The notes beneath the pieces were generated by a model, which was given only the letters and a program-made list of their open reading frames with translations, was not told the DNA's origin and searched no databases. 24,000 nucleotides of DNA from positions 19,504 through 43,503 of the forward strand of contig CAYHVU010000001.1 of the NCBI GenBank assembly GCA_964360075.1, written 5' to 3'. Positions 11,051-15,852 of the stretch are shown here, one piece after another. Source of the stretch: an uncultured Methanosarcinales archaeon. Lineage in GTDB: Archaea > Nanobdellota > Nanobdellia > Woesearchaeales > ARS49. Each line of letters opens with the position of its first letter. The first letter of the stretch is position 1. A program made the position numbers and the translations under genes.

Positions 11051-11133
11051 TGCGGGGAGCAGGATTCGAACCTGCGAAGGCCTAAGCCATTCGCTCTTGA
11101 GGCGAACTCGTTTGACCGCTTCGATATCCCCGC
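11051..11133 (-). tRNA. tRNA-Leu (anticodon CAA), class II with long variable arm, no encoded CCA
   Basis: Hand-folded minus strand: GCGGGGA TA TCG AAGCGGTCAAA CGA G TTCGC CTCAAGA GCGAA TGGCTTAGGCCTTC GCAGG TTCGAAT CCTGC TCCCCGC A. All four stems pair and the T-loop TTCGAAT is canonical. Confidence 0.9.
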
Positions 11134-13504: not shown

Positions 13505-13903
13505 TCATTCAATTAAGATTTCAAGCGCAGGAACCAAGAGTTTGCATTCTTGCACGAGAATGCGACGGTGACATTTTTCAGGTGTAAACTCATAACAAGT
13601 CAGGGTGACATTCTCTTTGAGCGCACGCATGCTCCAATGGACTAGCTCCTCTCGCAATTCAGGTTTTGCGAGATGGGTTCGGTAGATATCCATCAAATCC
13701 TCAAATGTGAGCCGCCCACGATAGTACTGCCCAACAGATTTTTCTGGTGGCGAAAGACAACGTACCCAATAATCAATCCCCGCTCCTTTTGCGAGTTCGC
13801 GTTCAGGATTAAGCCAAGTTTCATCAGTTAGCCGGCTCATCGTACAAACGCGAATACCATCCTCAGGTCTACGTTCACGAAAGACACAAGCAGTTTTTAG
13901 CAT
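13505..13903 (-). CDS. DUF488 (YeaO-like) family protein
   Basis: The N-terminal RERRPEDGIRV...RL and the C-terminal VTLTCYEFTPEKCHRRILVQ match the DUF488 pattern (LLCxE..p..CHR) as I recall it. The ATG lies 2 nt after the tRNA-Gly discriminator base. Confidence 0.6.
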   Translation of the reverse strand: MLKTACVFRERRPEDGIRVCTMSRLTDETWLNPERELAKGAGIDYWVRCLSPPEKSVGQYYRGRLTFEDLMDIYRTHLAKPELREELVHWSMRALKENVTLTCYEFTPEKCHRRILVQECKLLVPALEILIE

Positions 13904-13905
13904 AA

Positions 13906-13993
13906 TGCACCTGCCGGGAATCGGACCCGGATTCCAAGCTTTTTCCGACGTTTTTCGTGGGAAGCTCGTATCTTACCATTAGACGACAAGTGC
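13906..13993 (-). tRNA. tRNA-Gly (anticodon CCC) with a 17-nt intron at the canonical 37/38 position
   Basis: Hand-folded minus strand: GCACTTG TC GTCT AATGGTA AGAT A CGAGC TTCCCA [CGAAAAACGTCGGAAAA] A GCTTG GAAT CCGGG TCCGATT CCCGG CAGGTGC A. The intron spans 13941-13957. TTCC pairs with intron GGAA as the central 4-bp helix, flanked by 3-nt bulges CA|C and AA|A (BHB-like; the outer intron helix is weak). Confidence 0.8.
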
Positions 13994-14722
13994 TTTATTC
14001 GGGTTGTTCGGACGCACCCAGTCTAAGAATCTTGTGGTATTTTTTCCGTGGAGTGTGAGTGTGTAGATATCTGCCTTTCCTATTTTTTCCCATTTGTCCA
14101 TAAATGGGTTTAAATGACAAGACTGATGAATAATCATTAACGCATTATGCGCCAATCTGGGAGAAACGGTTGAAAAAGATATGCGCCGTTTAGGAGCATA
14201 GTAACTTCCATCAGTGTCTATAAGTCCTCGTAAAAACCCCAAGTTAAACTCATGATTATTTTTATCGAGTTTAACTAATCGGACCGTGTACGTTTTCTTA
14301 CCTTCCCAAATTAAATATTTTGCAATAAGTTCGCGAATGGTTTTTGAATAATATGTGAACGTGTAACAAGATGGCTTTCCTTTGTACAGCGTATGATAAA
14401 TTCGCGGTTTTTTCCCGAACCAACGTGTTAAAGTTTCCTCGAGATAGCGACGATATCCAGTTTCATATGCTCCCGCATATATCTGGATAATGTGTTGATA
14501 GTTTTTGGAACAATGATAATGTCCATCTCCGGCAAATATACCTAAAAACTCCCCGAGTTCATTATTGTTCTCAAAATGAAACGAAATTGGTTTGTTCTTT
14601 TTCCCATTGATTTTTTTGTAATGATAATAAATAGTTGATTTGCCAATATTGAGACGTTTGGAGATTTTATTGATTGATTGACCTTGATGAAGCAAATCAA
14701 TAATTTGATTCTTGTGTTTCAC
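13979..14722 (-). CDS. double-motif LAGLIDADG homing endonuclease with N-terminal helix-turn-helix
   Basis: Two LAGLIDADG motifs (LGEFLGIFAGDGHY and LGFLRGLIDTDGSY). N-terminal HTH QSINKISKRLNIGKSTIYYHYKK. GTG start at 14722; no in-frame ATG lies upstream before the stop at 14747-14749. The last five codons plus the stop (GCA CTT GTC GTC TAA) are the first 15 nt of tRNA-Gly. Confidence 0.85.
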   Translation of the reverse strand: MKHKNQIIDLLHQGQSINKISKRLNIGKSTIYYHYKKINGKKNKPISFHFENNNELGEFLGIFAGDGHYHCSKNYQHIIQIYAGAYETGYRRYLEETLTRWFGKKPRIYHTLYKGKPSCYTFTYYSKTIRELIAKYLIWEGKKTYTVRLVKLDKNNHEFNLGFLRGLIDTDGSYYAPKRRISFSTVSPRLAHNALMIIHQSCHLNPFMDKWEKIGKADIYTLTLHGKNTTRFLDWVRPNNPNKALVV

Positions 14723-14761
14723 AAACTTTGAAAACTGTTCAGATATTTAAACGTAATCATT
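13994..14761 (-). mobile_element. AT-rich homing-endonuclease cassette (free-standing, no intron or intein context visible)
   Basis: Hand counts of 60-nt lines give 30% GC (14221-14280) and 38% GC (14521-14580) inside the cassette, against 55% (13621-13680) in the neighbouring gene. The cassette is bounded by tRNA-derived sequence on both sides. Confidence 0.55.
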
Positions 14762-14811
14762 ATGAGCCGGGTTCAGTTATGCGGAAGATCCTACCATTGA
14801 ACGAGCAGTGC
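14762..14811 (-). pseudogene. tRNA-derived fragment (acceptor 5' strand plus D-arm, then scrambled remainder)
   Basis: The minus strand GCACTGC TC GTTC AATGGTA GGAT C TTCCGCA TAACTGAACCCGGCTCAT matches 19 of the first 25 nt of the intact tRNA-Gly 5' half (GCACTTGTCGTCTAATGGTAAGATA). A CTTCCGCA resembles the Gly anticodon loop CTTCCCA. No anticodon stem, complete T-arm or matching 3' acceptor could be folded. Confidence 0.4.
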
Positions 14812-14837
14812 GCTAGTCAATAGCCCCCCAAAAAAAG

Positions 14838-14847
14838 TATAAAAAAG
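14838..14847 (-). promoter_or_regulatory. TATA-like CTTTTTTATA (minus) ~27 nt upstream of the tRNA-like fragment; the T-runs may also terminate the PRC-barrel gene
   Basis: After the PRC-barrel stop (14849-14851) the minus strand reads TAATCTTTTTTATACTTTTTTTGGGGGG. The spacing to the fragment 5' end at 14811 is promoter-like. Oligo-T runs are archaeal terminator signals. Confidence 0.35.
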
Positions 14848-14848
14848 A

Positions 14849-15127
14849 TTACGCTGTTTCTTCGCCGTCTTCAGGCGAATACGCGGGCACTGCAGAGCGA
14901 GCAATAATCATGATATCGCCAACAGCCTTCACTAGCTGATGCGGCACGACAACGCCCTTTGCGCTGCCTAGGACCTTGCTCAGGAACGAGTTCTTCGTTG
15001 CGCGAACACGCCAACCGTACACTTTCGTAGGCGTCAGCATGGCTTCCTCTATGTCGCCAAAGTAATCGCCAGAATCCGTGAAGACCTTCATATCATAGGT
15101 CTCAATCATTTTCTTCATCTTTAACAT
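14849..15127 (-). CDS. small PRC-barrel domain protein
   Basis: 92 aa. MKVFTDSGDYFGDIEEAMLTPTKVYGWRV...GVVVPHQLVKAVGDIMII fits the PRC-barrel pattern (G..lG.v.d..id...v.g..v....vvvP...v..vgd.vi). A strong AGGAGGT lies 7 nt upstream. Small archaeal PRC-barrel proteins have been linked to cell division (CdpB type). Confidence 0.65.
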   Translation of the reverse strand: MLKMKKMIETYDMKVFTDSGDYFGDIEEAMLTPTKVYGWRVRATKNSFLSKVLGSAKGVVVPHQLVKAVGDIMIIARSAVPAYSPEDGEETA

Positions 15128-15168
15128 CGGGCTACCTCCTTGCGGGTGAGTTCTTTGCCGTGCGTAAG

Positions 15169-15177
15169 TATTTAAAG
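15169..15177. promoter_or_regulatory. shared, near-palindromic TATA box TATTTAAAG between divergent PRC-barrel and TraB genes
   Basis: It lies 23 nt upstream of ATG 15199 on the plus strand (leaderless spacing) and ~41 nt upstream of ATG 15127 on the minus strand (leader with AGGAGGT). Confidence 0.4.
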
Positions 15178-15198
15178 ATTTTGCGTCTTGAATGCTGT

Positions 15199-15852
15199 AT
15201 GCTCACCCTTCTCGGAACGTCCCATATTGCCAAACAGAGTCTAAATGAGGTCAGAAAGGCTATTGAGGAGGGCAAACCCGACATTATTGCGCTTGAATTG
15301 GACAGAGGGCGCCTAGAATCATTATTGAACCCGCAAAAACAGAAGATTCGCTTGCGGGACATGGCGCGTGTTGGAATCAAAGGGTGGATGTTCGCGCAAC
15401 TCGGAAGCTGGGCCGAAAAAAAGCTCGGCAAGCACGTTGGCGTGGCGCCTGGCGCTGAAATGCTCACCGCTGTGCGCTTGGCGCGCGAAAAAAAGATTCC
15501 GATCGCGCTCATTGATCAAGAAATCAGCATCACGCTCAAACGTTTCTCGAAGGCGCTCACGTGGAAAGAAAAGTTCAGGTTTGTGTGGGATGTGTTTGCA
15601 GGCGTATTTTCACGCAAAAAGCCTGATTTTGATTTGCGTACTGTGCCTACACAGCAAGTGCTGGAAAAACTCATCGGACAGGTAAAAGTGAGCTATCCGA
15701 ACGTTTACCGTGTGCTTGTCACGGAGAGGAATCACGTGATGGCAAATCGTTTGTATTCGTTGTTGCGCGCAAACCCTGAAAAACGCATTCTTGCTATCGT
15801 TGGCGCCGGTCACGTCGAAGAGATGGAACGCTTACTTCACAAAACTATTTAA
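15199..15852 (+). CDS. TraB/PrgY (Tiki superfamily) protein
   Basis: MLTLLGTSHIAKQSLNEVRKAIEEGKPDIIALELDRGR (GTxH...PD.vavEL pattern) and the C-terminal IVGAGHVEEMERLL (GxGH..E). The track start GTG 15160 would include the TATA box, so I use ATG 15199. Confidence 0.75.
   Translation: MLTLLGTSHIAKQSLNEVRKAIEEGKPDIIALELDRGRLESLLNPQKQKIRLRDMARVGIKGWMFAQLGSWAEKKLGKHVGVAPGAEMLTAVRLAREKKIPIALIDQEISITLKRFSKALTWKEKFRFVWDVFAGVFSRKKPDFDLRTVPTQQVLEKLIGQVKVSYPNVYRVLVTERNHVMANRLYSLLRANPEKRILAIVGAGHVEEMERLLHKTI

Follow-up and report, generated by a model that had tools for sequence, protein, structure and literature searches.

A stretch of 24,000 nucleotides from contig CAYHVU010000001.1 (assembly GCA_964360075.1, positions 19,504 to 43,503 of the forward strand), deposited under an uncultured Methanosarcinales archaeon and placed in the Woesearchaeales by GTDB, was analysed around a free-standing LAGLIDADG endonuclease gene joined to a tRNA-Gly(CCC) gene. 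The whole stretch is referred to as the window; its features lie on the minus strand unless otherwise indicated, and the homologue-bearing or syntenic loci compared with it are designated by L-numbers; L084 is an identical contig, derived from a 'Hain-H51' sample. Directly 3' of the stop codon of a PRC-barrel protein gene, the following features were found in the direction of transcription: a TATA box (CTTTTTTATA, 14847-14838), an orphan tRNA-like 5' piece (14811-14780), a short module (AACTGAACCCGGCTC, 14778-14764), a second, putative TATA box (TTTAAATA, 14751-14744), a GTG-initiated open reading frame (ORF) of 247 amino acids encoding a helix-turn-helix (HTH) domain and a double-LAGLIDADG endonuclease (14722-13979), and a tRNA-Gly(CCC) gene (13993-13906) with a 17-nucleotide intron at the canonical position 37/38 (13957-13941). 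The first TATA box, the tRNA-like piece, the endonuclease ORF and the intron-containing tRNA were all located on the minus strand where the original prediction, made from the sequence alone, had placed them. The low GC content that it had ascribed to the endonuclease gene was also observed (31-38% in the endonuclease ORF region vs. 47-52% in the flanks).

The tRNA-Gly(CCC) looked functional: the segment 13906-13993 scored 45.9 bits with the Rfam tRNA model (RF00005; gathering score 29) and 61.1 bits with our own covariance model, built from 40 DPANN tRNAs. Its intron was placed from the Rfam alignment, which had a 20-nucleotide insertion in the anticodon loop, and from RNAfold, in which the 17 nucleotides lengthened the anticodon stem by UCC/GGA plus a 3-nucleotide AAA bulge in a bulge-helix-bulge-like structure. 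ARAGORN at default settings and the Rfam gathering threshold applied to the whole window both missed this gene, so routine annotation would lose it; with introns allowed, ARAGORN called it tRNA-Phe(AAA) and misplaced the intron. The tRNA searches suggested with the original prediction were in this way only partly successful, with the intact tRNA scored by Rfam and missed by default ARAGORN, and the upstream piece left without any score. The T-loop of this tRNA (13924-13930) was TCCGATT, with a C at the normally invariant U55, a feature shared with the endonuclease-free tRNA-Gly(CCC) of the relative L160.

The endonuclease and tRNA genes overlap. The conserved part of the protein ends in ...PNNPNK, and the last four codons of the ORF plus its stop (GCA CTT GTC GTC TAA) are nucleotides 1-15 of the tRNA, which supplies the final 15 nucleotides of the ORF including the stop codon. 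This overlap had been predicted; it proved moreover to be family-wide and not peculiar to the window.

The endonuclease

The ORF was assigned from Pfam domains, homologues and a structure model. Pfam identified an N-terminal HTH of the resolvase type (HTH_7, residues 5-32, E = 4e-7) and a LAGLIDADG_3 domain (residues 158-232, E = 3e-9, 37.5 bits vs. a curated cut-off of 22.5), the latter corresponding to the second endonuclease domain only; both LAGLIDADG motifs were visible by inspection (LGEFLGIFAGDG and FLRGLIDTDG). The catalytic residues D66 and D171, together with the surrounding glycines, were invariant in 42 family sequences. The AlphaFold model (predicted local distance difference test, pLDDT, 95; predicted template modelling score, pTM, 0.85) had the pseudo-dimeric alpha-beta-beta-alpha-beta-beta-alpha fold of LAGLIDADG enzymes, and was matched by Foldseek with probability 1.0 to the intein endonucleases TliVMA and PI-PfuI, to I-SceI and to I-DmoI, with WhiA also listed; a sequence search of the PDB matched the HTH alone, and weakly. 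Between orthologues, the proportion of non-synonymous differences (pN) was 0.19-0.33 vs. 0.73-0.89 for synonymous differences (pS), the synonymous rate (dS) being saturated, such that ratios of non-synonymous to synonymous rates (dN/dS) are only upper-bound-like values. Judged by these comparisons, the endonuclease is under purifying selection and its active site is intact; with the predicted fold, the enzyme looks active.

The domain content was limited to the HTH and LAGLIDADG domains, with no GIY-YIG domain of the type found in the phage Seg enzymes. Nor was the gene of the archaeal intron-encoded kind, as the ORF lies wholly 5' of the sole 17-nucleotide intron and overlaps tRNA nucleotides 1-15, in agreement with the free-standing position proposed for it. 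A search of viral contigs for homologues gave three weak matches only (26% identity), and hence no evidence for a viral carrier.

The upstream tRNA fragment

The orphan piece starts at 14811, 26 nucleotides past the first TATA box, and reads GCACTGC TC GTTC AATGGTA GGAT up to 14788. The acceptor strand and D-arm (14811-14788) are intact, the anticodon-stem strand is gone through a 5-nucleotide deletion, and a trace of the anticodon loop (CTTCCGCA) follows at 14787-14780. No covariance-model match was obtained in the fragment, either with Rfam at E ≤ 10 on 13700-15000, with Rfam on the fragment alone (14772-14830, truncated matches allowed) or with our own tRNA model, and the alignment of the fragment with the downstream tRNA (31 nucleotides, 74% identity) had a local score of 23 vs. 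a maximum of 26 in shuffled sequences, not above chance by itself. The lack of a covariance signal in 14762-14811 had been named beforehand as an outcome that would speak against a tRNA remnant; this outcome was obtained, but the identity of the remnant was upheld by comparative data. As the covariance and repeat scores gave no signal, the fragment was validated by comparison with cassette-free alleles only.

For this comparison, 78 related loci were fetched from metagenomes using the neighbouring TraB-family protein as the query. The TraB-family gene (15160-15852, plus strand; Pfam TraB_PrgY_gumN) is divergent from the PRC-barrel gene (14849..15127; Pfam PRC; TAA stop at 14851-14849), and the pair, used as syntenic anchors, flanks alleles with and without the cassette alike. 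The cassette-free alleles which the original prediction had proposed to look for were present: L086 and L085 (PRC proteins 88% and 89% identical) lack an endonuclease and have, after the stop codon of the PRC gene, a TTTTTT(C)TATAC box and a complete tRNA-Gly(CCC) gene with no intron, and L160 likewise has an intact tRNA-Gly(CCC) and no endonuclease, the box in these three loci (TTTTTTATAC / TTTTTTCTATAC) occupying the same position before the tRNA. Over tRNA nucleotides 1-24, the orphan was identical to the tRNA of L086 (which starts GCACTGCTAGTCCAGTGGTAGGAT...) at 21/24 positions and to that of L085 (GCACCGTTCGTTCAATGGTAGGAT...) at 22/24; the alignment continued past the 5-nucleotide deletion through the anticodon loop, covering nucleotides 1-36 of the resident tRNA. 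Because cassette-free relatives have an intact tRNA-Gly(CCC) with a matching 5' part and the same TATA box at the same site after the PRC-barrel gene, the upstream fragment is, on these alignments, the displaced 5' part of a resident tRNA-Gly(CCC) gene with its promoter kept, as had been suggested.

The TraB-PRC locus contained the cassette in the window, L001, L002, L004/L087 and L100, and lacked it in L085, L086, L160, L126 and others, a presence/absence polymorphism at a conserved site of the kind used to recognise homing-endonuclease mobility. Of the approximately 14 metagenome TraB-PRC loci that have a tRNA-Gly(CCC) nearby, only 3 held the endonuclease. Although synonymous sites are saturated among the endonuclease orthologues, the dead remnant still resembled the genes of relatives at 21-22 of 24 positions; it must accordingly be much younger than the divergence of these lineages, and the insertion in the window lineage comparatively recent. 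The endonuclease-free tRNA-Gly(CCC) genes near PRC/TraB in L091, L097, L121, L126, L129 and L160 had A1 paired to U72 (ACGGCAG...CTGCCGTA), an unusual first pair for a tRNA-Gly.

Two other explanations of the fragment can be weighed here. Archaeal rRNA introns carry LAGLIDADG genes, and the fragment and the downstream sequence might be exons of one tRNA, with the endonuclease in a giant bulge-helix-bulge intron or between the halves of a split tRNA; ARAGORN did propose tRNAs with introns of 827-852 nucleotides spanning the ORF in L036 and L052. These calls, however, took the TATA box as the anticodon loop, and a usable second half was absent in most loci. The downstream tRNA is complete alone, and the acceptor strand of the fragment (GCACTGC) pairs with the 3' end (CAGGTGC) at only 5/7 positions. 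This explanation was rejected as very improbable on account of the complete downstream tRNA and the non-pairing acceptor strand; group I or other intron families gave no Rfam match. The second explanation starts from the common use of tRNA genes as targets by integrative elements, which duplicate a part of the target: the repeat would then be an attachment-site duplication left by an integrase-type element, or else a chance resemblance. We consider this the least credible of all the alternatives, as no integrase is encoded in the insert, which measures only about 0.87 kb, the duplication is imperfect and involves the 5' end of the tRNA, and chance resemblance is excluded by the alignment of the fragment to the cassette-free alleles.

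Origin of the functional tRNA

The functional tRNA of the window was compared with the tRNAs of loci with and without the endonuclease. Over nucleotides 1-24 it was identical to the cassette-free relatives at only 18/24 positions, and to the endonuclease-linked tRNA of L001 at 24/24 (67/71 over the exons). The endonuclease of L001 is 70% identical to that of the window and its tRNA holds a similar intron at the same place, even though the host genes of L001 are as distant from the window as those of L085 and L086 (TraB identity 67% vs. 62-63%). The acceptor stem of the cassette tRNA (GCACTTG/CAGGTGC) differs from that of the resident gene (GCACTGC/GCGGTGC) by compensatory change on both strands. 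In another pair of loci, L002 (with endonuclease) and L085 (without), both flanks are common and the tRNA sequences differ. Since the cassette-free relatives are more like the orphan than like the functional copy, whose first 24 nucleotides match the linked tRNA of L001, the functional tRNA most likely came in with the endonuclease cassette. Joint movement of endonuclease and tRNA, with replacement of the resident gene, is the simplest reading of the alignments. This agrees with the earlier suggestion that the element had brought a replacement tRNA copy with it.

The same data bear on the alternative that the endonuclease gene alone was inserted between the resident promoter and the tRNA, duplicating the first ~30 nucleotides during repair, in which case the downstream tRNA would be the original and nothing would have been imported with the endonuclease. 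The shortness of the repeat (31 nucleotides, 74%) would fit such an event, as would the T-arm of the downstream tRNA (CCGGG TCCGATT CCCGG), which resembles that of the resident gene in L086 (CCGGG TTCGATT CCCGG), and a 3' part about as near to L086 as to L001. The alternative is nevertheless unlikely: a dead copy nearer to the cassette-free relatives (21-22/24) than the live copy (18/24), the match of the first 24 nucleotides, acceptor pairs and intron of the live copy to L001 despite the equal distance of its host genes, and the acceptor stem changed on both strands all argue against it.

The preferred reading is that a mobile cassette of about 870 bp (14778-13906), consisting of a relic of an inverted T-arm, a putative TATA box, a stop-less gene for an endonuclease with an N-terminal HTH and a monomeric double-LAGLIDADG core, and a complete, intron-containing tRNA-Gly(CCC) directly after the last conserved codon, landed in the resident tRNA gene; we hold this reading as a whole to be probable.

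The endonuclease-tRNA family in DPANN archaea

Eighty-eight homologues of the endonuclease were found, all of them in DPANN-type archaea where named. A scan of one genome per species gave at least 80 loci, with 146 loci confirmed by tblastn, and tRNA positions were counted over 82 non-redundant homologue loci. In 76 of these 82, our own tRNA model identified a tRNA gene at the ORF 3' end (39 on the same strand, 37 on the opposite strand); the remaining six were cut by a contig end or had a multi-intron tRNA recognisable by eye. In the 39 same-strand loci, the conserved protein (...KPxNxNK) stops exactly where the tRNA begins and the ORF itself lacks a stop codon, which is provided by tRNA positions 8-10, 13-15 or 20-22 (overlap of 10-23 nucleotides). 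In the 37 opposite-strand loci, the end of the ORF meets the 3' end of the tRNA. An endonuclease abutting a tRNA is a rule of the family and not a local accident.

Clustering of the proteins gave clades that track tRNA identity and orientation: Gly(CCC), mostly same-strand and including the window; Ala(GGC/CGC), same-strand; Gly(UCC), opposite-strand; and Asp(GUC), a separate clade. At the syntenic TraB-PRC locus of L100 (470-1440), the whole endonuclease-tRNA unit was inverted relative to the PRC gene, with an inverted T-arm relic at the far end. The cassette contigs of L004, L025, L030, L031 and others carry the labels "Binatia bacterium", "Aminicenantes bacterium" or "Methanosarcinales archaeon", which are probably binning or labelling errors.

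The putative TATA box of the cassette lies about 21 nucleotides upstream of the GTG, a spacing that predicts an mRNA with little or no leader, and an A/T box was found at an equal distance before the start codon in L001, L002, L003, L004, L007, L011, L013 and L100. With this conserved box, expression of the endonuclease need not depend on the old tRNA promoter. The proposal that the tRNA fragment had kept its promoter was borne out, to which the second box, that of the cassette, has to be added.

Introns were not enriched in the endonuclease-linked tRNAs: 57/76 of them vs. 28/44 of the others were longer than 80 nucleotides (75% vs. 64%; Fisher p = 0.21), and six Gly(CCC)-linked tRNAs had no intron. 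The idea that the intron protects the linked tRNA was rejected on these grounds.

Members of the opposite-strand clade (L020-L032, L036, L040, L042, L045, L056 and L058; from the endonuclease stop to about +150) had a tRNA-Gly(UCC) with up to three introns, one of them in the T-loop (53/54). This T-loop intron folds into a hairpin with covariation, and the hairpin loop can pair with the 3' trailer of the tRNA, which is the antisense of the last codons of the endonuclease; the intron/trailer helices had a mean of 7.6 nucleotides for cognate and 5.8 for non-cognate combinations, and in an outer helix (CCGGGAAA/UUUCUUGG) G-U pairs are confined to the tRNA strand. A comparable pairing of leader and intron, searched for by eye in same-strand cassettes, was limited to a 5-bp match in the window, not conserved in L001 or L004.

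tRNA relics and motifs upstream of the cassettes

Remains of tRNA genes were also found upstream of other cassettes. Direct 5' tRNA parts like that of the window were present in L055, L069 and L075, and inverted tRNA 3' halves in L003, L007, L010, L011, L013 and L100; in the opposite-strand loci L020, L036, L045 and L056, direct repeats of the tRNA 3' part were located upstream of the promoter (identical over 16 + 12 nucleotides in L036). In unrelated contexts, cassettes of the Gly(CCC) clade shared a left-end module consisting of TGCGCCnnCCGGGAATTGAACCCGGCT, about 14 nucleotides and TTAAATA, which is the reverse complement of the tRNA T-arm plus acceptor strand. The window retains the right part only of this module (14778-14764), a truncated relic of an inverted T-arm that travels with the endonuclease. 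The inverted T-arm motif was found in 16 of 82 loci vs. approximately 2.5 expected (about six-fold), clustered between -48 and -64. Such remains are in keeping with cassettes inserting into tRNA genes and displacing part of the sequence. In L010 (2740-2960), three tandem and increasingly degenerate copies of the inverted tRNA 3' half (ATGCGCCGGCCGGGAAT...) precede the endonuclease, and the tRNA-Gly(CCC) is on the opposite strand although the enzyme falls in the same-strand clade.

A second motif, CACTGGACA, occurred in exact form in 20 of 83 endonuclease loci (e.g. L002, 2950-2958; L023, 2918-2926), almost only on the endonuclease strand and separated from the TATA box by 4-6 nucleotides plus a variable heptamer; it was absent from the window. 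In some tRNA-Gly(CCC) genes, U8 + D-stem GTCC + AGTG form the reverse complement of this motif, whose own complement, TGTCCAGTG, resembles the site of the resolvase HTH. The motif may be an operator or a target element for the N-terminal HTH.

A conserved upstream motif that could serve as an HTH operator would also suit a domesticated factor, and WhiA, a bacterial LAGLIDADG-HTH factor whose catalytic aspartates have been lost, was among the structural matches. The protein might accordingly have a part in controlling or aiding the expression or processing of the neighbouring tRNA, with the tRNA fragment an unrelated relic; the long-term purifying selection and the constant presence of a tRNA next to the protein would be compatible with such a role. 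We regard it as quite unlikely, since, unlike in WhiA, both catalytic aspartates (D66/D171) are kept family-wide, with the HTH at the N-terminus, and the cassette is distributed sporadically, some alleles having the same site free of it, and shows foreign GC content, tRNA relics beside many copies and, in L100, the other orientation at a syntenic locus.

Proposed mechanism

The comparative data are best read, and we favour this with reasonable confidence, in terms of a free-standing homing endonuclease with tRNA genes as its targets and a replacement copy carried along. Insertion of the cassette into the resident tRNA-Gly(CCC) gene 3' of the PRC-barrel gene would have left the 5' part and promoter of the resident tRNA gene as a decaying orphan (14847-14780), and the cassette tRNA would now do its job. 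The enzyme would cut cassette-free copies of the cognate tRNA gene, and double-strand-break repair would copy the cassette, with tRNA sequence (the orphan on one side, the tRNA on the other) and the flanks as homology arms. The linked tRNA copy would escape cutting and rescue function, so that the host could dispense with the cassette only by giving up the tRNA as well.

Inside the ORF, no promoter was evident within about 60 nucleotides directly upstream of the tRNA, where the sequence is GC-rich (...GGGTGCGTCCGAACAACCCGAATAAA); sigma-70 promoter and terminator scans are not informative for archaea. With no visible promoter before it, the tRNA of same-strand cassettes would have to come from the endonuclease transcript. 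Transcription would start at the cassette TATA box, perhaps with a second start at the old tRNA promoter, and RNase P would free the tRNA at 13993 (an RNase P protein gene is found near the cassette in L001). The cut would leave the endonuclease mRNA without a stop codon, such that tRNA maturation and complete translation of the enzyme may be mutually exclusive, as had been proposed, and enzyme output would probably be kept low. As the same holds for all 39 same-strand members, loss of the stop codon is probably tolerated, or even a useful brake on the nuclease.

Several observations weigh against this reading. Two T5 runs on the sense strand inside the ORF could terminate archaeal transcription before the tRNA (or might attenuate read-through), and co-transcription is not the general logic, given the opposed tRNA in about half of the family members. 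Linked and endonuclease-free tRNA-Gly(CCC) genes, compared by eye for a target or immunity site, showed no systematic difference, and no cleavage site was deduced; the intron-lacking linked tRNAs and the absence of intron enrichment speak against an intron-based escape of the linked copy from cutting. Endonuclease divergence among syntenic loci (57-70%) was similar to that of the host TraB (62-67%), a likeness equally compatible with long vertical residence. In its 3' part, the window tRNA was about equally similar to L086 (30/35) and L001 (31/35), and a chimeric tRNA with an imported 5' part and a resident 3' part would be compatible with these values. Finally, many of the upstream relics are inverted; speculatively, the near-palindromic ends of tRNA genes (acceptor stem, T-arm) may allow joining or inversion either way.

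The tRNA gene is followed by a DUF488 gene (13505..13903; Pfam DUF488-N3a) whose ATG lies 3 nucleotides past the tRNA 3' end, as in L004/L087 (L087, ~849-851), with no promoter visible in the gap; in these loci the tRNA may be part of a longer transcript, flanked by an ORF on each side. The only other tRNA of the window, an ordinary tRNA-Leu(CAA) (11051-11133), has its own TTTAAAAG box upstream and no endonuclease attached.

Relation to known systems and biological significance

The closest parallels were found in fungal mitochondria, where mobile ORFs (mORFs), first described for Allomyces macrogynus atp6, are LAGLIDADG or GIY-YIG genes at the 3' end of atp6, atp9, cox2 or nad3; the mORF brings a foreign C-terminal part of the gene, sometimes in phase without a stop codon, and the native end remains as an unexpressed remnant closer to relatives (PMC3630166). 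The cassette is similar in that a free-standing endonuclease ORF is joined to a host gene, with a functional copy beside the ORF and a displaced native remnant, and in that this remnant is nearer to the genes of relatives than the apparently imported functional copy is (21/24 and 22/24 vs. 18/24). Unlike the mORFs, which replace the C-terminus of an organelle protein gene, it occupies a chromosomal archaeal tRNA gene and apparently carries the whole tRNA; its ORF reads into the tRNA 5' end, or abuts the 3' end on the other strand, and belongs to a large family split by tRNA identity.

Free-standing homing endonuclease genes beside tRNA genes are also known for phage T4 SegB (discussed in PMC13096335) and other Seg/Mob enzymes of tRNA gene clusters (T4 MobE, PMC2790892). 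Seg and Mob enzymes spread by cutting endonuclease-less genomes, with co-conversion of flanking markers. They are, however, GIY-YIG (Seg) and HNH (Mob) enzymes of phage genomes, located between genes and with their own stop codons, whereas the present enzyme is a LAGLIDADG protein fused to one tRNA gene in a cellular chromosome. With I-DmoI, PI-PfuI and TliVMA, its best structural matches, it shares the fold and the catalytic motifs; those enzymes are encoded inside an rRNA intron or an intein and the host gene is repaired by splicing, whereas here a replacement copy appears to be brought, and an N-terminal resolvase-type HTH is added. Like integrative elements that target tRNA genes and make good the displaced part from a copy of their own, the cassette has a tRNA gene as its probable target, a partial duplicate at the junction and a gene which stays functional; unlike them, it has no integrase or recombinase, is only about 0.87 kb long and combines an imperfect duplicate with a homing-type nuclease.

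A full-text literature search that did not extend to most subscription journals, such that a prior description is possible, found analogues but no account of endonuclease-tRNA fusions in archaea, and the endonuclease-joined-to-tRNA design of DPANN archaea appears to be previously undescribed. If the mechanism outlined above holds, a replacement strategy would be added to the intron/intein and intergenic lifestyles of homing endonucleases, i.e. a third way to live in an essential RNA gene, by replacing the target tRNA gene with an own copy to which the reading frame is fused. Gene callers label the endonuclease ORF as a plain LAGLIDADG protein or as hypothetical, and since standard settings missed the tRNA-Gly(CCC), DPANN tRNA complements may be under-counted where cassettes sit. 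The family might also be an enzyme resource, comprising dozens of natural endonucleases that probably vary in specificity with the tRNA sequence.

A broader view, tentative and in our judgement somewhat doubtful, is that DPANN archaea harbour a large undescribed class of selfish endonuclease-tRNA elements, a "cleave-and-rescue" drive of natural origin. The gene of one tRNA species would be cut by each endonuclease lineage, whose own copy of that gene would resist cleavage; where both lie on the same strand, the tRNA would come only from the endonuclease transcript, such that silencing or losing the element would cost the host its tRNA, and release of the tRNA by RNase P would remove the stop codon of the mRNA and throttle the nuclease.

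It is a long-standing proposal that mobile elements targeting tRNA genes shape the tRNA gene architecture of archaea, and the endonuclease-tRNA family is a concrete and widespread system in which this can be tested. Its breadth, with at least 76 independent loci across DPANN lineages, bears on the frequent disruption of archaeal tRNA genes. If the cleave-and-rescue view were true, these elements would be a selective force behind the fragmented, intron-rich and reoriented tRNA genes of DPANN archaea.

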